From Patescibacteria group bacterium (lineage in GTDB: Bacteria; Patescibacteriota; Minisyncoccia; Phycocordibacterales; CSBR16-119), in assembly GCA_052033715.1 (NCBI GenBank), contig JBPOJJ010000003.1:52383-116382 (forward strand): 64,000 nucleotides of DNA, given 5' to 3'. The position numbers and the translations under genes were made by a program. Shown one piece after another: positions 2,892 to 51,161 of this stretch (position 1 is the first letter of the stretch; the number at the start of each line of letters is the position of its first letter). A model generated the notes under the pieces. The model saw only the letters and a program-made list of their open reading frames with translations. It made no database searches and was not told the origin of the DNA.

Positions 2892-3563
2892 TTAGGCTTT
2901 GTAGGCTTCGACAATCTTGTCGACGAAGAACTGCACACTCGTTCGAGAGGCGTCATTGGCGACAATGGGGTAGTCAACCTCGCGGATATCGTTGTCAGTA
3001 TTTACCAAAGCGACAACCGGGATTTTCATCATTTTGGCTTCGGTTAGGGCAATGCGTTCCTTCTTGGCATCGACGATAAATACTGCGTCAGGCTTTCGTG
3101 TCATGGTCGAAAGACCGCCGAAATTCTTCTGCATTTTTTCAATCTGGCGAGCAAAGTCAGACTGCTCTTTCTTTGTGTATTTTGCTAGATCACCTTTTTC
3201 TTGCTTGGCTTTTAGATCTGCCAACACAAGGATTCTTTTGTTGATTTGGGAAAAGTTTGTAAGCGTTCCGCCGATCCATCGATTCTCGACATAAGGCATT
3301 TTCAAATCTTTGGCGGCCGCTTCGATTATCTTCTTGGCTTCAGGCTTTGAACTTAGGAAAAGAATTGTTTTCTTCTCCTCCGCCAAACCTTTGACGAACT
3401 TCAATGCGTTCTCGAGCATACTTGCTGTCTGAGTCACATCGATGATGTCAGAATTGTTCTTGGTGCTAAAAACGTAGCTTTTGGTTGAAGGATGTCGTTT
3501 GGTCTTTGAATATCCAAAATGTCCTCCAGCCGCTAAAATATCGTTAATTAATTTGCTTTCCAT
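2892..3563 (-). CDS. rpsB: 30S ribosomal protein S2
   Basis: Conserved S2 sequence (GGHFGYSKTKRHPSTKSYVF...NRWIGGTLTNF). Confidence 0.95.
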   Translation of the reverse strand: MESKLINDILAAGGHFGYSKTKRHPSTKSYVFSTKNNSDIIDVTQTASMLENALKFVKGLAEEKKTILFLSSKPEAKKIIEAAAKDLKMPYVENRWIGGTLTNFSQINKRILVLADLKAKQEKGDLAKYTKKEQSDFARQIEKMQKNFGGLSTMTRKPDAVFIVDAKKERIALTEAKMMKIPVVALVNTDNDIREVDYPIVANDASRTSVQFFVDKIVEAYKA

Positions 3564-3599
3564 ATAAGTGTTCCCTTATCTGCACAAAAGCCTTGTTTA

Positions 3600-3700
3600 T
3601 AATAATGGCTTTCGTTTGACCCGCGGTGACTGCCGTGGGCATCCCGAGCTTTCCCGGTAGGGAGGCCCGAAGGATTAGAACAGATAGGGATATATTACAT
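3600..3700 (-). promoter_or_regulatory. GC-rich structured element in the rpsB 5' region (candidate leader or small RNA)
   Basis: ~60% GC block in AT-rich spacer; several short hairpins (ccgcgg-tgactg-ccgtgg; atcc...ggat). Confidence 0.3.
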
Positions 3701-3779: not shown

Positions 3780-4157
3780 CTAGGAGACTAGTCGTTTCCA
3801 AAGCCCTTCGTGAAAGATGAAGGTTGCCTTCCCGTTACGACCGGCGATTTTGCTGGTGTAGTTCACAACAAGCTCGTTGCCAAGGAGCTCTATGTTCAGG
3901 ATGCTGCGAGCTTGTCCCCACATGTATTCACCAAGTGGCAGTTCTTTCTTCTGGCCGTCGGTGTCGAGGTAAAATACACGATCGAAAGGATCCCTGTTGG
4001 CGCCGGCGTAATCGACGCTGTGGTAGGAGGTTTCGATCGTGAACCCCAGGTCTCCAACACGTATGTTCTTGGTGGTGACTTGGCTTTGGCAACACGCCTG
4101 AGCATTGATGTTCAGGGAAACGGCGATGAACGCCAGGAAGGTGACGATGGTTCTCAT
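3780..4157 (-). CDS. small secreted hypothetical protein (GC-rich orphan)
   Basis: Signal peptide MRTIVTFLAFIAVSLNINAQA; ~52% GC versus ~40% background; own terminator. Confidence 0.55.
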   Translation of the reverse strand: MRTIVTFLAFIAVSLNINAQACCQSQVTTKNIRVGDLGFTIETSYHSVDYAGANRDPFDRVFYLDTDGQKKELPLGEYMWGQARSILNIELLGNELVVNYTSKIAGRNGKATFIFHEGLWKRLVS

Positions 4158-4243
4158 GGATCAGGGTTTGGGTATATAGTACCATATTCAGGTACTATTG
4201 TCAAGCATAGTAAAAACCCCTAATTTCCAGTAATATAGAGCCC

Positions 4244-6542: not shown

Positions 6543-8512
<1,970 letters not shown>

Positions 8513-9390: not shown

Positions 9391-11430
9391 ATGCCAAAAT
9401 TCAAACTTCAAAGTGAATACGTTCCTGCGGGAGATCAACCACGAGCAATTTCGGGGCTTTTGGATGGGCTTAAAAAAGGCTTCAAGAAACAGACGCTTCT
9501 AGGGGTTACAGGCTCTGGCAAGACTTTTACAGCGGCTAACGTCATTCAAAAAATCGGTAAACCAACTCTCGTGATCGCTCACAACAAAACTCTAGCGGCG
9601 CAGTTGGCGCAGGAGTTCAAAGAATTTTTCCCTGACAACGCCGTGCATTATTTCGTTTCGTACTACGACTACTATCAGCCGGAAGCCTACATTCCGCACT
9701 CGGATACGTACATTGAAAAAGACGCGAGCATTAACGAAGAAATCGACAGGCTTCGCCACGCCTCGACCCAATCATTACTCACACGAAATGACGTCATCAT
9801 AGTGGCGTCGGTATCGTGCATTTACGGTCTCGGATCTCCAGAAGAATACAAGACCAGCAACATGCTCATCAAAGTCGGTGACAAGCTCGGCCGAACTGAG
9901 ATTATGAAACGTCTTGTCGCTATTCACTATGAACGCACCAATGCCGATCTCAATTCTGGCGATTTTCGAAGCATCGGATCAAGCATGGTAGAAGTAATGC
10001 CAATATCAGAAAATTATGTGTATCGACTCGTGCTCGAGGGCGACATTATCAAAGAAATTTTGCTCATCGATCCAGTTAGTTCAAAAATTCTCGAGAAGCC
10101 GGCCCAAGTTTTCATCTTTCCAGCGAAACATTTCCTCACTGATGGCGCAAAGAAAGAAGCGGCAATCAAATCAATCAAAGCTGAACTGAAAGTTCAGTTG
10201 GCAAAATTAGAAAAAGCCGGACTTGTTCTCGAAGCCGAACGTCTGAAACGCCGAACGAATTATGACTTGGCTATGATCAAGGAAGTCGGATATTGCTCTG
10301 GTATTGAAAATTATTCCCGACATTTATCAGGCAAACTTCCGGGTGATCCGCCAGAAACATTACTTTCATATTTCCCACACGATAAAAAGGGCAATCCAGA
10401 ATTCCTGACCATTATCGACGAGTCGCACGTAACTCTGCCACAGCTTCGCGGGATGTACGCCGGAGATGCGTCGCGCAAAGAAACGCTCGTCAAATATGGT
10501 TTCCGACTGCCTAGCGCCAAAGACAACCGTCCTTTGCGTTATGAAGAATTCGAAGAACGCATTGGCCAAGTTATTTACACGTCGGCGACACCGAGCGAAT
10601 ATGAACTTACAAATAGTGAAAACGTGGCTGAACAGATCGTCCGTCCGACGGGACTCGTTGACCCGAAACTCGAAGTCAGATCCATCCTTGAAAACTTGGA
10701 TGCGGATTTCCCGGGTCAGGTGCAAGATTTTATAAACGAAGCTGAAAAAGAAATTGCCAAGGGTGGGAGAGTGCTCGCGACAACATTGACCAAGAAAATG
10801 GCCGAAGATCTGGCGTCGTATCTGAAAGAGCGCAAAATCAAATCCGAATACATTCACAGTGATATCAAAACAATCGAACGAATTAAAATTCTGACACAGT
10901 TTCGCAAAGGTGAATTTGATATTCTCGTCGGCGTAAACTTGCTTCGCGAGGGACTTGATCTGCCTGAAGTGTCACTCATCGGAATTCTCGATGCGGACAA
11001 AGAAGGATTTTTGCGCTCGGAAACTTCGCTTATCCAGACGATTGGACGCGCAGCGCGAAATGTCGATGGGCGAGTAATTCTCTACGCTGACAACATCACC
11101 GGTTCGATGGAGCGCGCAATGGGTGAGACGAATCGTCGTCGTGAAAAACAAGTTGCGTACAATCTAGCGAATGGCATCACGCCAAAATCAATCAAGAAAA
11201 AGATTCAGGACATTACCGAGCTTATGGATTCGGAACATGACAAAGCTGTGGCGCGGGAACTCGAAGTTGATTCAGCGGTGTTTAAAATTTCTGATCCGAA
11301 AAAACGTCGTTCGCAAATAAACAAACTTATAACATTGAAAAAAAGAGAAATGAATGAAGCGGTCAAAGAACTAGACTTTGAAACTGCGGCGATACTACGT
11401 GATGAAATAAAAGTTTTGGAAAATAAGTAA
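9391..11430 (+). CDS. uvrB: excinuclease ABC subunit B
   Basis: Helicase motifs GVTGSGKTF, beta-hairpin YYDYYQPEAY, C-terminal UVR domain. Confidence 0.95.
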   Translation: MPKFKLQSEYVPAGDQPRAISGLLDGLKKGFKKQTLLGVTGSGKTFTAANVIQKIGKPTLVIAHNKTLAAQLAQEFKEFFPDNAVHYFVSYYDYYQPEAYIPHSDTYIEKDASINEEIDRLRHASTQSLLTRNDVIIVASVSCIYGLGSPEEYKTSNMLIKVGDKLGRTEIMKRLVAIHYERTNADLNSGDFRSIGSSMVEVMPISENYVYRLVLEGDIIKEILLIDPVSSKILEKPAQVFIFPAKHFLTDGAKKEAAIKSIKAELKVQLAKLEKAGLVLEAERLKRRTNYDLAMIKEVGYCSGIENYSRHLSGKLPGDPPETLLSYFPHDKKGNPEFLTIIDESHVTLPQLRGMYAGDASRKETLVKYGFRLPSAKDNRPLRYEEFEERIGQVIYTSATPSEYELTNSENVAEQIVRPTGLVDPKLEVRSILENLDADFPGQVQDFINEAEKEIAKGGRVLATTLTKKMAEDLASYLKERKIKSEYIHSDIKTIERIKILTQFRKGEFDILVGVNLLREGLDLPEVSLIGILDADKEGFLRSETSLIQTIGRAARNVDGRVILYADNITGSMERAMGETNRRREKQVAYNLANGITPKSIKKKIQDITELMDSEHDKAVARELEVDSAVFKISDPKKRRSQINKLITLKKREMNEAVKELDFETAAILRDEIKVLENK

Positions 11431-18961: not shown

Positions 18962-19034
18962 GGGCCCTTAGCTTAGTTGGTAGAGCGCCGCTTTTGCAAA
19001 GCGGAGGTCAGGAGTTCGAATCTCCTAGGGTCCA
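18962..19034 (+). tRNA. tRNA-Ala (anticodon UGC), no encoded CCA
   Basis: GGGCCCT acceptor with G3:U70 Ala identity pair, anticodon loop TTTGCAA, T-loop GGAGTTCGAATCTCC, discriminator A. Confidence 0.9.
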
Positions 19035-19045
19035 CGCGTTGAAAA

Positions 19046-19078
19046 AAGAGCCCACTTTTTGAGTGGGCCTTTTTTCTT
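19046..19078 (+). terminator. rho-independent terminator after tRNA-Ala
   Basis: gcccact-ttttg-agtgggc followed by cttttttc. Confidence 0.6.
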
Positions 19079-19154
19079 GCGTGGACCCGTAAAGTAGGCA
19101 AACTGCTTTGCCTGCGGGGAGATTCGAAAGCCGCAACGATGTCGCTTGCGACAA

Positions 19155-19242
19155 GTGAGGCGGGGTCGCGAGTACTTTTGAGCGTAGCGAATTAGTAACT
19201 CGTGACCGAACCCTAGGGTCCACAAAAGACACAAAGTCCCAA
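19155..19242. repeat. repeat unit 1 (ggggtcgcg...agtaactcgtgaccgaaccctagggtccac...), contains 12 bp identical to the tRNA-Ala 3' end
   Basis: Direct comparison with 19327-19431; palindrome accctagggt; followed by a 13 bp-stem hairpin. Confidence 0.6.
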
Positions 19243-19326
19243 CTGCTTGGGATTTTGTGCTTTTGTGGAAGGCGCAGCGTTGTTTTTGTTTGAGTCCGCC
19301 CGAGGTGGACGAAAGGCAAAAACCGC

Positions 19327-19431
19327 GAGCCGGGGTCGCGCAAAATTACCGTCAGGTAATTTATGTGTGACCACAAAAACTCAGTAACTCGTGACCGAAC
19401 CCCGGGGTCCATCCAAGACACAAAACCCAGA
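19327..19431. repeat. repeat unit 2 (ggggtcgcg...agtaactcgtgaccgaaccccggggtcca...)
   Basis: ~85% identity to unit 1 over the 48 bp core; palindrome changed ccctaggg to ccccgggg (symmetry preserved). Confidence 0.6.
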
Positions 19432-44511: not shown

Positions 44512-45537
44512 ATGAGTGAAGCTTTATACCGAAAATATCGTCCAGCAGCCTTTGACGAGGTCTTGGGCCAAGAGCATATCGTCCGGGTTCTAAAAGGCGC
44601 TATTTCGCTTGGTAATATTTCGCATTCATATCTTCTGCACGGATCGCGCGGTACAGGCAAGACGACGATTGCCAGAATCATTGCTCGGGAATTAGAAACA
44701 TCGGACGAAGACATTTTTGAAATAGATGCGGCTTCGAACCGCGGGATTGACGACATCCGAGAACTTCGCGAAGGCGTCTCGAGCGCGCCGTTTAATTCGA
44801 AATACAAAGTTTACATCATTGACGAGGTGCACATGTTGACCAAGGAAGCCTGGAACGCTCTTTTGAAAACACTCGAAGAGCCACCAGCTCACGTCATCTT
44901 TATTTTGGCCACCACTGAGCTTGAGAAAGTTCCTGAAACGATCGTGTCTCGTTGCCAAGTTTTTTCTTTTAAAAAGCCGTCACTTGCTGTGCTCAAAGAG
45001 CTTGTCCAAAACATTGTCAAAAAAGAAGGTTTCAAAATCGATGCGGCCGGAACCGAGCTTGTCGCTATCTTGGGTGACGGATCTTTCCGTGATACGCATG
45101 GAATTTTGCAGAAGATTATGTCGTATTCCAAAGACAAAAATATTGATGCCAAAGAAATTGCTCTGGTAACTGGCGCGCCGCAAACGTCTCTGGTCAACGA
45201 ATTTTTACAAAGTCTGGCGGAAAAGAATCTCGAGAAAGGTCTTCAGGCTATTCAAAAAGCGGGCATTGAAAATATTGACATGGCGCTTTTCTCGAAACTT
45301 ATTTTAATGAAACTTCGAACCGCGCTATTACTGCGTTATGCGCCAGAAATGAAAAATACTTTGATGGAAGTACAGACCCTTGATGACAGGGAATTTGTTT
45401 TGGGAATTTTGAAAGAAAAAGGTGGCGCCATTAATTCCAAATCTCTCGAAATTCTACTCGAGGCTGGCGAGACTCTAAAATACGCTTCAGTCAAAGAACT
45501 CCCTCTCGAACTTGCGCTTATAAAAATTTTAATGTAA
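44512..45537 (+). CDS. dnaX: DNA polymerase III gamma/tau subunit (short form)
   Basis: YRKYRPAAFDEVLGQEH...GSRGTGKTT Walker A, sensor motifs. Confidence 0.85.
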   Translation: MSEALYRKYRPAAFDEVLGQEHIVRVLKGAISLGNISHSYLLHGSRGTGKTTIARIIARELETSDEDIFEIDAASNRGIDDIRELREGVSSAPFNSKYKVYIIDEVHMLTKEAWNALLKTLEEPPAHVIFILATTELEKVPETIVSRCQVFSFKKPSLAVLKELVQNIVKKEGFKIDAAGTELVAILGDGSFRDTHGILQKIMSYSKDKNIDAKEIALVTGAPQTSLVNEFLQSLAEKNLEKGLQAIQKAGIENIDMALFSKLILMKLRTALLLRYAPEMKNTLMEVQTLDDREFVLGILKEKGGAINSKSLEILLEAGETLKYASVKELPLELALIKILM

Positions 45538-45552
45538 AAAATAGAAAACCCC

Positions 45553-45870
45553 TTGATCATGGCAGAGTTCGTCAAAGTGCATGGCTTTCGGCCCAGAGGC
45601 CGCGACCAACAACATGACTATTTCCCCGCATCCGACAGGCGAGGGGAAAACCCCATCCTTGATGGGAAGATCGTCCAGGTGCACGAAGTAGGCGGCCCAA
45701 AGACGGTGCATGCGAACATCACTTTCGAGGTTCGCCGGTATGGCAATGGACATGTCGAGCTTTGGCTTACGGACGCAGAAGCTCGCGGCAGAACAGCTTG
45801 GTGGATGAATAAGCCACTCTCCAACACTGAGCTCGATCGTCTGCGTTTCGATCTTTCTAACCTGGATTGA
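45553..45870 (+). CDS. hypothetical protein, first gene of the GC-rich islet
   Basis: GC-rich coding region; hairpin plus T-run terminator 45893-45930. Confidence 0.35.
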   Translation: MIMAEFVKVHGFRPRGRDQQHDYFPASDRRGENPILDGKIVQVHEVGGPKTVHANITFEVRRYGNGHVELWLTDAEARGRTAWWMNKPLSNTELDRLRFDLSNLD

Positions 45871-45892
45871 TCATGATCATCCCAACATCCGT

Positions 45893-45930
45893 CAGGCGCA
45901 ATTCGAAAGAACGGCGCCTTTCGCTTTTTA
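45893..45930 (+). terminator. candidate terminator
   Basis: aggcgc...gcgcct hairpin followed by ttcgctttttt. Confidence 0.45.
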
Positions 45931-46005
45931 ATTTAGTTTCTTAATGATTTTCCAATTTTCTCCCGACGCCTCTCTACTAGTCTTGCACTACTTAGCTTTA
46001 TTCGT

Positions 46006-46024
46006 GCTGCGGGACTAGGACTCG
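46006..46024. repeat. 19 bp direct repeat of the tRNA-Gln 3' end (att-like core)
   Basis: gctgcgggactaggactcg identical at 46006-46024 and at the tRNA 3' end (46190-46208). Confidence 0.6.
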
Positions 46025-46191
46025 GTCACAAATCACTAAGTCTTTTATTTCGCTTCGCTCATAAAATCCAAAGTGTTCGCGACCCCGTCTCGGCACTTCA
46101 TCCTGCTTTGGCAGGCGTGCCTGCGATCTTCTCGTCCTTCAGAAACAGTCATGTAAATTTTGCTGGAATAGCCCAGACAAAATTTTCATAG

Positions 46192-46262
46192 CTGCGGGAC
46201 TAGGACTCGAACCTAGATACCCAGGACCAAAACCTGGTGTCCTACCATTAGACGATCCCGCA
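46192..46262 (-). tRNA. tRNA-Gln (anticodon UUG), U1:A72, discriminator G73, no encoded CCA
   Basis: Reverse complement TGCGGGA...CCAGG-TTTTGGT-CCTGG...CTAGG-TTCGAGT-CCTAG-TCCCGCA-G cloverleaf. Confidence 0.88.
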
Positions 46263-46362
46263 ATTCGTTTATTTTGCCTCAAAATTATCTTTTAATCAAG
46301 AAAAAAGTAACTCTTGCCAAAAACTGTTTCAGGGCGTAGATTGAATACGAAAAACAACACTG

Positions 46363-46827
46363 ATGCCCAAACCAAACAGCCCAGGTTATGTCGTGGTTTC
46401 TTTCCTTGAGGATGAACCACCGCGTTTTTTCCTAAAGGGTGATTGGCCACTTCATGTGACCATCGCGCCACCTTTCGTCTTCTCGAGGGACTTTCAGAAG
46501 CTCGTCTTTCTGCTCGAAGAGGTCTCAGTTGGCCTAGCCCCATTTCGGACAGTCGGAATTCGTCGCGATCTATTCGGCAAGAACAAGGACGTGCCGGTCA
46601 CGTTGGTCGAAAGCGTTCCTTCGCTGGTGACCTTGAACAGGAAATTCATTGGAACTGCTTCATTGTGGGTCGAGTTTCGAGGGATAGATCACGGAGGGTA
46701 TCGGCCGCATGTTTCAGATCAGTTGTGTGGAAGACTGGACGTCGGGCAATCGATCATACTCGGCTCTGTCTCGCTAGTCGAGATGCGGCGAGACGAACGT
46801 CGTATTGCTCACACACTGGTGTTCTGA
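46363..46827 (+). CDS. 2H phosphoesterase superfamily protein (LigT / 2'-5' RNA ligase-like)
   Basis: Two H-x-T/S-x motifs (PLHVTIAPPF and YRPHVSDQL) about 90 aa apart. Confidence 0.5.
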   Translation: MPKPNSPGYVVVSFLEDEPPRFFLKGDWPLHVTIAPPFVFSRDFQKLVFLLEEVSVGLAPFRTVGIRRDLFGKNKDVPVTLVESVPSLVTLNRKFIGTASLWVEFRGIDHGGYRPHVSDQLCGRLDVGQSIILGSVSLVEMRRDERRIAHTLVF

Positions 46828-46844
46828 TTGTCCGCTCGCATCAA

Positions 46845-46890
46845 GGTAGCCCCGCCGTATTCTCGGCGGGGCTTCCGTGTTTTATGCAAG
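46845..46890 (+). terminator. rho-independent terminator
   Basis: agccccgccg-tattct-cggcggggct then tccgtgtttt. Confidence 0.6.
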
Positions 46891-46943
46891 CTAATTTCCG
46901 CGCACAATGTTACACTGAAATTAAACGAACACAGGACATAAAC

Positions 46944-47996
46944 ATGGCACAGCCATCAACATCAGCAGCATTTCTCAAAGACCTGGAAGATTGTCGAGCC
47001 TCGCTCGTCAGCAACAGGTACGGCAACACAAGCCTTTACATCAAGGGCTTGGTACTCGCAGCAGCATTTGTCGTTTGCTGGAGCACACTCGTATTCTTCT
47101 TGCCCGAGCATTCGCTTCTTGCGATTGCTCCCGGCATGGCGCTCGGTTTCGTGATTGCACTCCTTGGCTTCAACGTCTTCCACGACGTCGGCCACGGTAG
47201 CTTCTTCAGAACTCCGAGAATGAACAAGCGCATGCATTGGCCTCTCGGAGTATTCCTGGGCGCAAGCATCCTCGTTTGGAATCCGCAGCACAACTTGCAT
47301 CATCGACATCCGAACAGCGAGACTGATACGGACATCGATGTGCCGGGAGTGAGAATGCATCCGGGACAGCCATGGAAGTGGTATCACCGCTTCCAAGCTT
47401 TCTATGCGCCTCTCATCTACTCGCTCGGATACTTCGCATGGATCTGGCGAGACCTACGCCGGTCTATGGCAAACCGTGTCGGAACTGTCGAGATCGGTAT
47501 GAAGCCGAGAGACAAAGTAGAGCTTTGGATTCAGAAGGTGCTCTACATCGGTCTCGTTATTACTCCCATCGTTGTGGTGAATGGAGCGGCGGCGATTGTG
47601 CCACTGGTAGCGATGTATCTGACGGCCGGCATCGTGCTCGCGATTGTATTCCAGTGCGCGCACGTTGTTGAGGTGAGTGAATTCCCGAACGCAGAACGAA
47701 TGGGGGAGATTGATAATGCGGAGCATCAACTACGCACGACCGTCGACTTCAGCACCGGGAATAACTTGTCGAGCCGGGTGTTTCGATGGTTTGTCGGAGG
47801 TCTCAATTTCCAGGTGCTTCATCATTTGCGCCCGGACATCAGTCACGTACATTACGCCAAGCTTCATGGACCAGTCCAGAAGCTCACCGCCAAGTACGGT
47901 TTGCCTTACCGACAGATGTCGTACCTCCAAGCTCTTTGGTCACACCTCACGACCCTTTATCGCAATGGAAGGAAACCTTCCGTCCTTGCGGTGTGA
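46944..47996 (+). CDS. membrane fatty-acid desaturase family protein
   Basis: Three His boxes HDVGH, HNLHHRH, QVLHH with multiple TM helices; SD AGGA 6 nt upstream of ATG; ORF-track N-terminal extension rejected. Confidence 0.85.
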   Translation: MAQPSTSAAFLKDLEDCRASLVSNRYGNTSLYIKGLVLAAAFVVCWSTLVFFLPEHSLLAIAPGMALGFVIALLGFNVFHDVGHGSFFRTPRMNKRMHWPLGVFLGASILVWNPQHNLHHRHPNSETDTDIDVPGVRMHPGQPWKWYHRFQAFYAPLIYSLGYFAWIWRDLRRSMANRVGTVEIGMKPRDKVELWIQKVLYIGLVITPIVVVNGAAAIVPLVAMYLTAGIVLAIVFQCAHVVEVSEFPNAERMGEIDNAEHQLRTTVDFSTGNNLSSRVFRWFVGGLNFQVLHHLRPDISHVHYAKLHGPVQKLTAKYGLPYRQMSYLQALWSHLTTLYRNGRKPSVLAV

Positions 47997-48002
47997 AGTA
48001 AC

Positions 48003-48045
48003 GCGGCCCTGTCATAGAGCAGGGCCGCTCTTCTTTTTAAATATA
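48003..48045 (+). terminator. terminator of the desaturase gene
   Basis: gcggccctg-tcatagag-cagggccgc then tcttcttttt. Confidence 0.6.
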
Positions 48046-48047
48046 AA

Positions 48048-48085
48048 AATGAAGAAGCCCCGCCAAGGCGGGGCTTCCGTTCGAA
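48048..48085 (-). terminator. terminator of the 48091-48498 gene
   Basis: gaagccccgcc-aag-ggcggggcttc perfect 11 bp stem; T-run on the minus strand. Confidence 0.6.
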
Positions 48086-48090
48086 CAGGC

Positions 48091-48498
48091 TCATGCTTGG
48101 CCTGCAAGCTCTCGTTCGCAGAGCTTGATCCATTCGTCCATGTTCTGGTCGATGTAGGCGACACCAATGTAGGCGCACCGATCAGTGATCGCGGGGATGA
48201 GTTTGGTCCAGCCTATGAACAAATCAACCTCGTCCTTCATCGTCATGACGCTTTTTCCAGCATGGTTTTGCTTGAGGTGTTCGAGTATCTGCGGGAGCAG
48301 GGGCCTGCCGATCTTCTTGAGCTCTTGACGAGCTTTGGAGCGATCGAATTTCTTGTTCGGCGACATGTTATTCTTGGCCAACATGTCTTTTTCGAACTGC
48401 AAAATCAGGGCAAGGTGTTCAGGCACGGGAGTTATTGGGAGCATGGTGGTGGAGTTGGGTTCGGTCAAGATATTACGATAAAAATGCGGTAGCGTCAA
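48091..48498 (-). CDS. hypothetical protein (GC-rich islet)
   Basis: Protein-like ORF with own terminator; no recognised domain. Confidence 0.5.
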   Translation of the reverse strand: MTLPHFYRNILTEPNSTTMLPITPVPEHLALILQFEKDMLAKNNMSPNKKFDRSKARQELKKIGRPLLPQILEHLKQNHAGKSVMTMKDEVDLFIGWTKLIPAITDRCAYIGVAYIDQNMDEWIKLCERELAGQA

Positions 48499-48600
48499 AT
48501 AAATTTTTTAGCTATTCTCATTTAGGCTGACGCCGCCGCACGTTAGGCTTTGATGAAAGAATAATTTATAAATTAATAAATAACTTTGTGAAAAGTGAGA

Positions 48601-48632
48601 AGGCCACCGCGTAACGGTGGCCTTCGTCATCC
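48601..48632 (-). terminator. terminator of the 48645-49250 gene
   Basis: aaggccaccg-cgtaa-cggtggcctt perfect 10 bp stem. Confidence 0.55.
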
Positions 48633-48644
48633 AAAGGATCTTCG

Positions 48645-49250
48645 TCAATTCACTCCAGCTACTCTGCGACGTTCTCGAAGCAATTCAGCATCTCCTGGGT
48701 GGTTTAGTTCACAGAGTTGGTCACCTTCCACCGGTTCGGGGTGTGGGCCCTCGATCGGGGTGTCTTTGGTCCGAGGCTCTTCTTCACACAGCTGATCTCC
48801 CAAGGCCTTCTTGGTAAGCTCGGCGATCAACCTCTGGGCTGAAAACCTAGACCGAAGAGCACCAACAACCCCTTTGTCCTCGAGTCGACCATTGATGTAG
48901 TTGAGCCGGTGGTCAACAACTCGGAATTTCTCTCGGACGTAATCCTTGGAACGTTTGGCGGCCCGGGTGAAAAGGTGGTTGATCATGGACCACAGAAGGA
49001 GGAGTAACCCTCCCGCTATGATAATCGGCCAGCCGTTCTTGGAACCCAGAACATTGTGATTCAAATACAGGCCCAAGGTCAGGCACGCGCAGAAGATCAA
49101 CATCACCAGAAGCATGTACCAGGGGTTGTCTCGTACACGCTTCTTGAGCCAGGGGCCGGTCTCTGTCTGGATGTACAGTTCGATATCCATCCTGTCCTTC
49201 CGTTCTTGCCGGTTTTCGTTCTTGTGTTCTTGATGTGTCGTGGTTGTCAT
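48645..49250 (-). CDS. hypothetical two-TM membrane protein (start trimmed to MTTTTHQ)
   Basis: Two hydrophobic helices, charged tail; GC-rich. Confidence 0.5.
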   Translation of the reverse strand: MTTTTHQEHKNENRQERKDRMDIELYIQTETGPWLKKRVRDNPWYMLLVMLIFCACLTLGLYLNHNVLGSKNGWPIIIAGGLLLLLWSMINHLFTRAAKRSKDYVREKFRVVDHRLNYINGRLEDKGVVGALRSRFSAQRLIAELTKKALGDQLCEEEPRTKDTPIEGPHPEPVEGDQLCELNHPGDAELLRERRRVAGVN

Positions 49251-49403
49251 GGTGGTGGAATTGGTGATTTTTAGGGAGCGGGTTTCGTCAGACCTCTTTT
49301 TACACCAAAAACGGCTTTTGGTCAACCTGGGCTTTGCAATCAATGGAAAATAATGTATAGTGTTAGCCCATCCCACCTCGGGATTTATTTTTTCTCAAAT
49401 CAT

Positions 49404-51161
49404 ATGGAAATCCGAAATATCGCCATCATCGCTCACGTCGACCATGGCAAGACTACTCTTACTGACGCCATCATGCGCCAAACCGGCATGGTCACCGACG
49501 AGTCAATTTCAATGGACTCAAATGCTCTCGAAAAAGAGCGCGGCATTACTATTTACGCCAAAAACACTTCCGTGGATTACAAAGGCACGAAGATAAACAT
49601 TGTTGATACGCCAGGCCACGCCGACTTTGGTTCTGAGGTTGAGCGCGTGTTACGTTCTATCGACTCCGTGCTTCTCATCGTCGATGCTCAGGAAGGTCCG
49701 ATGCCACAAACTCGTTTCGTTTTGAAAAAGTCTCTCGAGATCGGCCACAAGCCAATCGTTGTTTTGAATAAAATTGATAAACCGGCAGCGGATGCCAAAC
49801 GCGCACACGACGAAGTCTTTGAACTATTTTTCGAGCTCGGCGCAACCGAAGAACAGCTAAACTTCACAACTGTTTACGCCATCGGCAAGCAGGGGGTCGC
49901 GATGCGAAATTTAGAAGATGAGAAGAAAGACATCACTCCGCTTCTAGATGTCGTTATCGAAAAAGTCGCACCGGCCAAAAGTGAGGCCACGCTTCCACTC
50001 AAAGCCCAGCCATTCAATCTCGGTTACGACAACTTCTTCGGACGTATGGCTGTTGGCCGAATTTACGAAGGAACTCTCAAAGATGGCCAGAATGTTTTTG
50101 TAAAGAAACATGATGGTACTGTGGACACTGGTCGTGTGACGAAGCTCTTCACCTTCTCAGGAACAACCAGAAAAGAGGTCAAAGAGGTTACGGCTGGAGA
50201 CATCTTTATGGTTGCTGGTCTTCCGGAAATTTATATCGGTGACACCATTTGTGATTCCAAAGATACTGAACCACTTCCAACAATCAAAGTCGACGAACCA
50301 ACGATTGCTCTAAACTTCCTCGTCAACAATTCACCGTTCGGCGGACGCGAAGGTAAATTTGTTACGTCTCGCCAGATTCGTGAAAGACTTTTAAAAGAGC
50401 TTGAGATAAACGTCGGACTTCGTGTCGACTTCGAGGGCGACAACATGAAAGTGTTTGGTCGTGGAGAATTGCATGTCGCAATCCTAATTGAGAATATGCG
50501 ACGCGAAGGTTACGAACTTCAGGTCTCTCAGCCACAGGTCATCATCAAAGAAGAAGGCGGTGAGAAAACCGAACCTTACGAAGAAGTTACGATTGAAATT
50601 CCAGAAGATTCCCAGGGTGCTGTCATCGACAAACTTTCTCGTCGTGGGGTGCATGTTACAAACATCAAACCCGAAGAGGGAAATCGTGTACGCATGATGC
50701 TCGAAGGTCCGACTCGCGGACTTTTGGGATACAGGGGACAGTTTATGGTTGATACCAAAGGCGAGGGAATTTTCGCATCGCGCGTGATTGGATTCAAACC
50801 ATACGCAGGAGCTATCGAAAAGCGCGCAGTGGGATCAATGGTCTCAATGGCGACAGGCAAGGCGCTTGGCTACTCGCTCTGGAATCTTCAGGATCGCGGA
50901 ACTCTATATATTGGTGCCAACACCGAAGTCTACGAAGGAATGGTTCTCGGCAACACTTCCAAGGGTGAAGAGATGATGGTCAATCCAACCAAAGGTAAGA
51001 ACCTCACAAATGTTCGTTCGTCTGGAAACGACGAAGCGATTACGCTCGTTCCGCCGCTTTTGCTGACAATCGAACGCGGACTCGAAATTATGTCTGACGA
51101 TGAGTATCTAGAAGTTACGCCAATATCTGTGCGACTCAGGAAGCAAGTATTAAAAAGATAA
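49404..51161 (+). CDS. typA: translational GTPase TypA/BipA
   Basis: IRNIAIIAHVDHGKTTL G1, DTPGHADF G3, NKIDK G4; EF-G-like domains. Confidence 0.93.
   Translation: MEIRNIAIIAHVDHGKTTLTDAIMRQTGMVTDESISMDSNALEKERGITIYAKNTSVDYKGTKINIVDTPGHADFGSEVERVLRSIDSVLLIVDAQEGPMPQTRFVLKKSLEIGHKPIVVLNKIDKPAADAKRAHDEVFELFFELGATEEQLNFTTVYAIGKQGVAMRNLEDEKKDITPLLDVVIEKVAPAKSEATLPLKAQPFNLGYDNFFGRMAVGRIYEGTLKDGQNVFVKKHDGTVDTGRVTKLFTFSGTTRKEVKEVTAGDIFMVAGLPEIYIGDTICDSKDTEPLPTIKVDEPTIALNFLVNNSPFGGREGKFVTSRQIRERLLKELEINVGLRVDFEGDNMKVFGRGELHVAILIENMRREGYELQVSQPQVIIKEEGGEKTEPYEEVTIEIPEDSQGAVIDKLSRRGVHVTNIKPEEGNRVRMMLEGPTRGLLGYRGQFMVDTKGEGIFASRVIGFKPYAGAIEKRAVGSMVSMATGKALGYSLWNLQDRGTLYIGANTEVYEGMVLGNTSKGEEMMVNPTKGKNLTNVRSSGNDEAITLVPPLLLTIERGLEIMSDDEYLEVTPISVRLRKQVLKR

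Follow-up and report, generated by a model that had tools for sequence, protein, structure and literature searches.

Gene turnover between dnaX and typA, and a family of structured tRNA-tail modules beside tRNA genes, in Patescibacteria

The attachment sites of CTX-phi (attP(+)) and of integron cassettes (attC) are folded single strands, and the sublocation classes of integrases were reportedly laid out by Williams in 2002. The closest precedent for the locus described here is provided by the tycheposons of Prochlorococcus, in which genomic islands are seeded at tRNA genes by integrase-carrying elements (10.1101/2020.12.28.424599). Bacterial RNAs that mimic tRNAs are also known and include the tRNA-like domain of transfer-messenger RNA (tmRNA) and the YrlA Y RNAs (PMC4201824; PMC3985003). 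The present analysis concerns a 64-kb stretch of a Patescibacteria contig (JBPOJJ010000003.1), called the window throughout, in which a GC-rich islet (45540-49300) with a tRNA-Gln gene and five open reading frames (ORFs A to E) lies between dnaX and typA, and it concerns a structured element on the 3' side of that tRNA, here termed a tRNA-tail module. Patescibacteria, also called the candidate phyla radiation (CPR), have tiny genomes and depend on hosts, and their gene acquisition is poorly understood.

The dnaX-tRNA-Gln-typA interval is a gene-flux hotspot of long standing in this Paceibacteria-like genus, and the islet is a mosaic in which two cassettes seen only here stand beside older residents shared with relatives, not one decayed element. 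The reading in which this hotspot and this mosaic are joined to the tRNA-tail module, as a route of DNA entry on the 3' side of the tRNA, was judged to have about an even chance of being right. An earlier note on this DNA had interpreted the islet as a decayed integrative element at the tRNA.

The 19-bp repeat and the tRNA-tail modules

The features at tRNA-Gln are:
46191/2-46262, minus strand, tRNA-Gln(UUG) gene, called by ARAGORN and matched by the Rfam tRNA model at 60.9 bits; its last 19 nt are the proximal repeat copy, O1
46006-46024, minus strand, distal repeat copy O2, an exact 19-mer that forms the 3' end of the tRNA-tail module
46002-46190, minus strand, tRNA-tail module behind tRNA-Gln, ~185 nt, made up of spacer S (46025-46190) and O2; the best-conserved helix, P4, is at 46024-46086

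The 19-mer GCTGCGGGACTAGGACTCG, which spans T-loop position 56 to one base beyond the discriminator of tRNA-Gln, is present at 46006-46024 and 46191-46209 as an exact 19/19 match in the same orientation with a gap of 166 nt, in agreement with the duplication reported in the earlier note. No third copy within 3 mismatches was found in the window, and no copy was found in 100 shuffles. There is no gene in the segment enclosed by the two copies; ORF A is found past the distal copy, and ORFs B to E are all 5' of tRNA-Gln. Because the repeats enclose 166 bp without a gene, att sites flanking the five cargo genes are ruled out, and the earlier view of the repeat as a footprint bounding a decayed element with a five-gene cargo was not supported.

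An integrase-borne element that entered at the 3' end of tRNA-Gln, lost its integrase and left a 19-bp att and five cargo genes behind is accordingly very unlikely. Such an element would fit the real GC shift of the islet, the exact repeat from T loop to 3' end and the lack of an integrase among the ORFs, and tRNA-seeded islands with partial-tRNA repeats are well known (10.1101/2020.12.28.424599). However, besides the gene-free interval between the repeats, the position of four of the five genes 5' of the tRNA speaks against it, as does the occurrence of the desaturase, ORF D and a positional counterpart of ORF E in congeners; moreover, ORFs A and B are separate indels, and the spacer is conserved far beyond the neutral expectation.

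This conservation was measured against relative loci (given L numbers), which were fetched via TypA, close desaturase homologues and DnaX homologues. Locus L081 belongs to a congener (JGI 3300045396 Ga0490029_000008) whose housekeeping proteins are 64-96% identical to those of the window, and L087 is an independent Logan assembly, likewise of a congener. Spacer S is 94-95% identical to the L081 and L087 copies, and tRNA-Gln is 97% identical between the window and L081, whereas the four-fold degenerate sites of six genes shared with L081 are only 48% identical, i.e. saturated, and other intergenic regions in the same comparison are at most 84% identical. The spacer is therefore not a neutral scar. 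Its fold z-score is -5.1 on the tRNA strand versus -3.4 on the other strand. RNAalifold applied to four S copies was uninformative, as the sequences were too similar for covariation.

Several candidate identities of the module were rejected. It is not recognised as a canonical tRNA, tmRNA or Y RNA by ARAGORN or the Rfam models: ARAGORN called only three true tRNAs in the window and did not call the module, and Rfam (E <= 1) returned only tRNA-Gln and tRNA-Ala for 45.4-49.5 kb and 18.4-19.6 kb. A 35-codon ORF on the tRNA strand of S shows four non-synonymous changes to one synonymous change relative to L081. Hammerhead-like ribozyme motifs were found neither by eye nor in Rfam.

Two further modules were identified in the window:
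19078-19225, plus strand, module Ala-1, a well-preserved copy downstream of tRNA-Ala (18962-19035), ending in a duplicate of the tRNA-Ala 3' end, CTAGGGTCCAC
19234-19413, plus strand, module Ala-2, a degenerate second tandem copy matched by nhmmer and by a covariance model (CM), ending in CGAACCCCGGGGTCCAT

The family thus includes two members after tRNA-Ala, members after tRNA-Gly and tRNA-Arg in L010, which represents a different genus (TypA 74% identical), and members after tRNA-Gln in the window, L081, L087 and L113. Ala-1 is ~85% identical to both L010 modules. A profile of S (nhmmer) matched 19156-19216 and 19325-19402 as well as the L010 homologue, and the Gln module was matched to the Ala-1/Arg profile with an nhmmer E of 4e-6. 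In every member the terminal strands match the neighbouring tRNA, and in all members the copied 3' end stops at discriminator+1; the terminal copy of the tRNA-Ala 3' end in Ala-2 reads …CCGGGGTCCAT. The tandem Ala modules are overlapped by a spurious 137-aa (amino acid) GC-rich ORF on the minus strand (19008-19421).

In the well-preserved copies, a terminator-like hairpin comes after the tRNA, and next in order are the complement of the tRNA acceptor 3' strand (for example GCGTGGACCC in Ala and TGCGGGTAG in Gly), a hairpin, P2, with a 9-bp stem and the conserved CAACUGCUUG, and the complement of the T-stem 3' strand followed by UCGAA. Next comes a ~90-nt conserved core with AGCC, the P3 hairpin AUGUCGCUCUGCGACAG and the long P4 stem GGGGUCGCGAGUAC…GUAACUCGUGACC, and the module ends with CGA(N), the T-stem 3' strand, the acceptor 3' strand and the discriminator plus one base, which make up the 'att-like' repeat. 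Folding of the module as a single strand rebuilds the acceptor/T-arm duplex of the neighbouring tRNA gene. The 5' strands of the module are perfect complements of the tRNA 3' strand, not copies of its 5' strand, as seen in the Ala module, with A3-U70 where the tRNA has G3-U70, and in the Arg module, with GCGGG where the tRNA T stem has GUAGG. These complementary strands and P2 with the CAACUGCUUG loop are clear in Ala-1, in the L010 Gly and Arg modules and in L113.

MAFFT and RNAalifold aligned five divergent modules poorly, and this approach was replaced by a covariance model, R1, built from the three good members Ala-1 (seed score 152 bits), Gly and Arg. R1 matched the Gln module over its full length (46002-46170, E 1.9e-5 within the window) and also matched L113. 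The Gln module has the further family features: it lies 3' of its tRNA on the same strand, carries the 19/19 copy of the 3' end and contains the P3-P4 core. In the model-guided alignment 90% of cells are paired, versus 76% in shuffles and 30-41% with slid partners, and two-sided changes occur at 20 of 38 pairs versus 9.8±1.7 in shuffles (a value reached in 0 of 500). Some G-U pairs of the module helices are invariant.

The possibility that the repeat and spacer are a neutral leftover, either a decayed tandem tRNA copy or the scar of a deleted element, is highly improbable. Partial or degenerate tRNA-Gln copies after tRNA-Gln are indeed common in metagenome contigs, a scan with the 19-mer having found such a second copy in at least ten unrelated contigs. 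A leftover of this kind is at odds with 94-95% identity over 166 nt against saturated four-fold sites, with the ~85% identity of the modules in another genus to Ala-1, and with helices maintained by compensatory changes. A leftover could show this conservation only after a very recent transfer between the lineages, which would in itself mean a mobile element.

Among the contigs of that scan, L118, L124, L126, L140, L168 and L209 carry a degenerate whole tRNA-Gln copy after tRNA-Gln. This copy has GGCGGGGTGAAGTAGGAC at its 5' end and a D arm that is shortened, and a GC hairpin of 20-25 nt stands in for the anticodon loop or for a portion of the T arm. L209 also contains a 3.5-kb block that is bounded by further partial tRNA copies and shows no obvious integrase; a 303-aa ORF of this block is Mrr-like by eye. 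Across all loci fetched, 11 of 151 tRNAs have, within 400 nt downstream, a 14-mer that repeats their 3' end in direct or inverted orientation, versus 0 of 151 upstream. In L010 (12070-13033), a terminator lies after tRNA-Phe, together with 13 nt that repeat the 3' end of this tRNA in inverted orientation, and a 247-aa ORF farther on has an N-terminus that is GIY-YIG-like by eye (YVYLLLD…FYVGKG).

Exact-pattern scans of IMG/VR viral contigs with S, the 19-mer and two module cores returned nothing, blastn of both module regions against INPHARED phages gave no match, and S gave no match in the JGI metagenome collection, which evidently is without the L081 samples. The tRNA-tail modules are apparently an undescribed structured family: neither Rfam nor the viral and phage collections nor the literature consulted yielded anything for them.

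The main rival to a role in DNA entry is that the module is purely a gene for a non-coding RNA (ncRNA), a tRNA-shaped small RNA derived from a duplicated tRNA, beside which the variation of nearby genes would be coincidental. The acceptor and T stems would then be processing or stability handles, P2 would replace the D and anticodon arms, and P3-P4 would be a functional domain inserted in the T loop, with no part in DNA recombination. We regard this explanation as possible, well short of probable. It is favoured by the constant location of the module downstream of the tRNA and on its strand, by the compensatory changes and the strand-specific invariant G-U pairs, by conservation as strong as that of the tRNA, by the stop at discriminator+1 in all members, and by the precedent of tmRNA and YrlA Y RNAs (PMC4201824). 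The terminator-like hairpin between tRNA and module, which leaves no room for a promoter in the well-preserved copies, and the 5' strands that are perfect complements instead of copies of the tRNA 5' strand are mildly against it. Also against it are the lack of an Rfam family match and the duplication of the module around inserted DNA in L081 and L087.

That duplication is seen most fully in L081, where the 19-mer is present three times. A 196-bp unit, consisting of 7 nt, the 19-mer, a 165-nt spacer and the last 4 nt of the tRNA, occurs twice at 99% identity, beside dnaX (3406-3601) and beside the tRNA (9614-9809). The two units enclose a 6-kb island encoding a copper oxidase, an ArsR-like regulator, the small and large subunits of ribonucleotide reductase and PNPOx, and the island has 167-bp inverted terminal repeats (95% identity) that end 0-11 nt from the direct repeats. 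The same dnaX / 19-mer-spacer / inverted-repeat junction was found in L087 (11041-11288). No transposase or integrase was found among the called genes of the island, and, compared with a transposon, it has inverted repeats and a flanking duplication of 196 bp, not of a few bp. A staggered-cut insertion, site-specific recombination and homologous recombination may all be candidates for its origin.

Inside the island, ~500 bp of GC-rich DNA (L081 3780-4295) contain no credible ORF and have no Rfam match but hold a 22-nt inverted repeat (3877-3898 / 4143-4164); this segment could be a structured RNA or a dead gene. An Rfam scan (E <= 1) of the island returned tRNAs only.

Gene content of the dnaX-typA interval

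The genes of the islet and its two conserved anchors are:
44512-45537, plus strand, dnaX, short gamma/tau clamp-loader subunit (Pfam DNA_pol3_delta2, AAA), left anchor of the hotspot
45559-45870, plus strand, ORF A, a 103-aa soluble protein, GC 0.548, between dnaX and the distal repeat copy
46300-46886, plus strand, ORF B cassette, with a promoter-like site (46314-46342), the ORF (46363-46827, 154 aa) and a terminator (46848-46883)
46906-48039, plus strand, desaturase cassette, with a conserved promoter region, ORF C (46944-47996, 350 aa) and a terminator (48003-48038)
48091-48498, minus strand, ORF D, a soluble protein of 117-135 aa with its own terminator (48078-48053)
48645-49250, minus strand, ORF E, a 201-aa protein with two transmembrane (TM) segments, both hydrophobic, directly upstream of typA, with a terminator (48625-48599)
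49404-51161, plus strand, typA/bipA (Pfam GTP_EFTU, BipA_C), right anchor of the hotspot

The gene content found between dnaX and typA in relatives includes:
L003, L005, L088 and L091, a sigma-70 gene and a ~130-aa gene, both between dnaX and the tRNA
L090, genes for an M23 peptidase, an SDR, a MIP and a Ble-like protein
L091, genes for Exo_endo_phos, NUDIX, DoxX and glyoxalase proteins
L001, an AT-rich three-gene block, then homologues of ORFs D and E

The best matches to the TypA of the window are metagenome-assembled genomes, all of Paceibacteria-like Patescibacteria; TypA is 97% identical to that of L001 and 95.5% to that of L081 at the amino acid level, and the dnaX product is 89% identical to that of L081, with synteny in L003, L005, L077, L090 and L091. 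The order dnaX … tRNA-Gln … typA is old, being found in these five loci and in L015. The genes between dnaX and typA, in contrast to this constant order, differ in every relative examined (compared were the window, L081/L083, L084, L001, L090, L091, L003, L005, L015 and L077), and the earlier suggestion that this is a site of gene gain was supported. Variants without the desaturase block exist (L001, L090, L091, L003 and L005), each with other genes there, and no relative carried the identical block; no integrase-bearing version of the islet was found among the relatives examined.

The sigma-70 gene of L003, L005, L088 and L091 has no homologue in the window or in the L081 interval. In L001, the closest relative by TypA, the three genes upstream of ORF D (110-2010) have a GC of 31-34% versus 41% for the locus; two of the three are paralogous and encode ~170-180 aa, and the contig end is reached there.

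The promoter-tRNA-trailer unit of tRNA-Gln is conserved in L088, L090 and L091. This unit of ~130 bp is inverted relative to dnaX and typA in L091/L092 (12829-12902), L088 (9451-9503) and L015 (8198-8269). Despite the inversion, the L091 tRNA-Gln is 100% identical to that of the window, and the cargo is then on the 3' side of the tRNA. Two additional segments were noticed in L015. The first (8150-8171), between dnaX and the complete tRNA-Gln, is a 5' fragment of 22 nt from another tRNA-Gln, of the TGCCCGG type; the second consists of 46 nt located 20 nt past the tRNA (8291-8336) and is 85% identical to the outer end of the inverted repeat of the L081 island.

The interval also varies between near-identical contigs. 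L083 and L084 are 99.7% identical, yet they differ by a 1,994-bp AT-rich block of five genes (L083 1761-3746; L084 1753-1760), which encode a 107-aa protein, AdoMetDC, two small ORFs and CYTH. The block, which L084 lacks, starts right after a GC hairpin plus CGTTT and ends in a second hairpin plus CGTTT. Within the window the hairpin tail GGCGGGGCTTCCGT has exactly two copies, 46865-46878 and 48067-48080, both at cassette borders of the islet; it was rejected as a genome-wide repeat, as these two exact copies within the islet are the only ones. L081 carries five AT-rich genes inserted between ORF D and the two-TM gene, and its GC-rich and AT-rich blocks alternate sharply (0.53 / 0.36 / 0.53).

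The description of the five ORFs given in the earlier note held for the most part. No recombinase, phage or defence protein was found among them with Pfam, NCBIfam, PHROGs and PADLOC, which agrees with the reported lack of an integrase. ORFs A and D are soluble and without a Pfam family match, as expected for the two orphan cytoplasmic proteins, and ORF E has the two TM-like segments ascribed to it. Terminator-like hairpins, said to be strong after each gene, are strong 3' of B, C, D and E and weaker 3' of A.

ORF A had no match in Pfam, NCBIfam, PHROG or PADLOC, and tblastn against every fetched relative locus gave none; its position is taken by 14 bp in L081 versus 468 bp in the window. Its family is rare, with seven relatives among 1.84 billion representative proteins, and four relatives of ~100 aa in that collection have E below 1e-10. 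Two proteins, of 412 and 577 aa, contain 4-6 repeats of the same stretch of ~35 residues.

ORF B had been called a LigT-like 2H phosphoesterase. Two HxT/S motifs, HVTI and HVSD, are visible by eye in the translation, in keeping with that assignment, but the PF13563 (2H phosphoesterase) match is weak (E 3.9e-5, 24.2 bits) and under the 27-bit cut-off, and the AlphaFold single-sequence model was unusable, with a predicted local distance difference test score (pLDDT) of 31. No homologue other than itself was found among 5.8 billion proteins, and ORF B is not present in any fetched relative locus. Its site in L081 consists of ~45 bp instead, making the cassette an indel relative to L081.

ORF C is a membrane fatty-acid desaturase of the front-end type, and this part of the earlier annotation was confirmed. 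It matches PF00487 with E 6e-33 (115.2 bits, cut-off 29.7) and has three His boxes, HDVGH at 80, HNLHH at 116 and QVLHH (QxxHH type) at 290, and four TM-like hydrophobic spans within 31-83 and 194-247. A homologue of 80% aa identity, with the JGI product name 'linoleoyl-CoA desaturase', occupies the same site in L081, and a homologue of 81% aa identity in L086 lies at a different genomic site, where the nucleotide similarity is confined to 46906-48039. These best matches are on two contigs, one clearly of a relative and the other, L086, of an affinity that is not established; outside this small clade of close matches, desaturase homologues are only 31-39% identical. The literature consulted on desaturases of Patescibacteria and on CPR islands or integrases contained nothing directly relevant.

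In L086 (8934-11053) a KAS-III-like gene, identified by a weak PF08541 match, is located directly upstream of the desaturase gene. Its G+C content at third codon positions (GC3) is 0.705, above that of the desaturase gene, in a contig of 45% GC. The two genes may be a lipid-related pair that was transferred together.

Homologues of ORF D at the same position are 69% identical at the aa level in L081-L085 and 44% in L001, and the GC3 of this gene is high in the window, L081 and L001 (0.57-0.66). A two-TM gene is directly upstream of typA in every relative for which that part was read (L001, L081, L090 and L091), with a GC3 of 0.56-0.60 in L081, L090 and L091 and 0.48 in L001. ORF E itself is hypervariable, being 27% identical to its L001 counterpart and non-alignable with its L081, L090 and L091 counterparts.

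The divergence of the desaturase and of ORF D between the window and L081 is comparable to that of housekeeping genes. As they are 80% and 69% identical at the same L081 site, both therefore predate the split of the window and L081. The islet is regarded as a mosaic because the desaturase, ORF D and the two-TM gene are shared with congeners, whereas ORFs A and B were found in no fetched locus.

Origin of the islet and possible function of the modules

The islet has a GC of 50.9%, versus 43.4±1.7% elsewhere, with a maximum of 46.5 in 106 windows of equal size (z = 4.4). The reported shift from ~40% to ~52-58% is therefore real but overstated, the highest 500-bp window within the islet reaching 54.8%. 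The raw tetranucleotide distance of the islet also supports an atypical composition (z = 6.6), but its GC-corrected tetranucleotide usage is not an outlier (z = -1.4). GC3 of the five ORFs is 0.56-0.66 versus 0.43±0.065 in the other genes of the window. A general minus-strand effect on GC3 was rejected as the cause, as the other minus-strand genes of the window are not GC-rich. By composition the islet resembles an integrative element, yet the counterparts of ORFs D and E in relatives also have raised GC3.

The islet genes could alternatively be native, with GC-richness that is intrinsic or kept by selection or biased repair, and the variation between relatives could reflect differential loss and fast divergence. 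This was considered unlikely. The raised GC3 of ORF D and of the two-TM gene (0.48-0.66) in L001, L081, L090 and L091, the unremarkable GC-corrected tetranucleotide usage, and the housekeeping-like divergence of the desaturase and ORF D would fit such an origin. On the other hand, the desaturase cassette of L086 lies in an unrelated context in which the similarity ends at the cassette borders, whole-cassette indels between the near-identical contigs L083 and L084 are clear-cut, GC-rich and AT-rich blocks alternate sharply in L081, and ORFs A and B have no counterpart in any relative.

In the preferred reading of a hotspot, a mosaic islet and a module as entry route, the older GC-rich residents of the site would be the desaturase cassette, ORF D and the hypervariable two-TM gene, and ORFs A and B would be single-gene cassettes, each with its own terminator-like hairpin. 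DNA would enter 3' of the tRNA, with the module as the entry site. In folded form, the module might be used for attachment by a recombinase provided in trans; alternatively, it might be a portable homology, 196 bp long, that allows Campbell-type insertion of circles following DNA uptake. The window would then represent an unoccupied state with a single module, in which only the ORF A segment lies beyond the module.

The anatomy of the module, its conservation, its family membership, the covariation of its helices and its duplication around an island in relatives are shown directly, as are the inversions of the promoter-tRNA unit and the whole-cassette indels; that the module takes part in recombination, and how cassettes enter 5' of the tRNA, we infer. 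More specifically, the modules might be tRNA-mimicking docking or attachment sites for integrase-less cassettes and islands at tRNA genes of Patescibacteria, folded either as RNA or as incoming single-stranded DNA, a proposal that we put forward as tentative and, taken by itself, more doubtful than the entry route as a whole. Whether in recombination or as a tRNA mimic, the function of the module is unproven.

Several points weigh against the preferred reading. The 5' half of S is degenerate, with only the anti-T segment AGGACGAGAA recognisable, and P1 and P2 of the Gln module are mismatched and of low confidence. The covariation signal rests on about five independent sequences, in an alignment fitted to the model. 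The module occurs in few lineages (the window, L081/L087, L010 and L113) and is absent from the other ~200 loci. Plain homologous recombination or a staggered-cut insertion could likewise account for the 196-bp duplication in L081. No recombinase was found in the islet, in the L081 and L209 islands or, by a crude motif search in which a six-frame pseudogene search was not included, in the 64-kb window, so that no enzyme can be named. No mechanism accounts for the entry of the four genes B to E 5' of the tRNA, and the sole clue to insertion there is that the L083/L084 indel joins right after a hairpin plus CGTTT on both sides. Finally, GC alone is no proof of foreign origin because ORFs D and E are GC-rich in several relatives, too.

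The turnover at this one position involves whole genes, among them those for a desaturase, a nitrite-reductase-like copper oxidase, a ribonucleotide reductase, a NUDIX protein and a MIP channel. If the module proves to be an attachment or homology device, it would provide a concrete, testable mechanism of island formation and a sequence marker for islands; if it is an RNA, it would represent a new family of tRNA-derived RNAs. Docking at tRNA genes, if true, would offer streamlined symbionts with natural competence a fitting way to acquire genes. The host lineage is generally considered incapable of fatty-acid synthesis, and the retention and exchange of an oxygen-dependent membrane desaturase bear on the remodelling of borrowed lipids by lipid-scavenging cells.

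Comparison with known systems

As in tRNA-seeded islands, the genome here is streamlined, and a conserved spot adjacent to a tRNA holds different cargo in each relative; direct repeats of partial tRNA 3' ends, tandem partial copies and islands without an integrase are further likenesses. By way of difference, no integrase was seen in any of the islands examined here, and in the window the repeats enclose 166 bp and most of the cargo is 5' of the tRNA. In addition, the segment between the tRNA and the copy is here a conserved structured module common to different tRNA species, which is not a described feature of those elements.

The encoded desaturase resembles membrane front-end desaturases (DesD/Delta6-like, Bacillus Des/Delta5-like) in its three His boxes, the third of the QxxHH type, and in its four spans, and differs from them in that ORF C is only 31-39% identical to any homologue outside its small clade.

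With the attP(+) of CTX-phi and the attC of integrons, the module shares an imperfect palindrome of ~100-180 nt, paired arms that rebuild a target-like duplex, strand-specific G-T/G-U pairs, bulges, and cargo units that each have their own hairpin. No Xer-type or IntI-type enzyme was identified here, and the likeness is drawn from the palindromic architecture and the strand-specific pairs alone. The arms of the module mimic a tRNA acceptor and T arm, in contrast to dif or the attI/attC core.

With tmRNA and the YrlA Y RNAs, the module has in common that its 5' and 3' ends form acceptor-like and T-arm-like helices into which a foreign domain is inserted, and that tRNA finders miss it. It differs from these RNAs in the lack of a tag ORF and of an Rfam match, in an insertion that lies in the T loop and not at the anticodon position, and in stems that follow the adjacent upstream tRNA, be it Gln, Ala, Gly or Arg.

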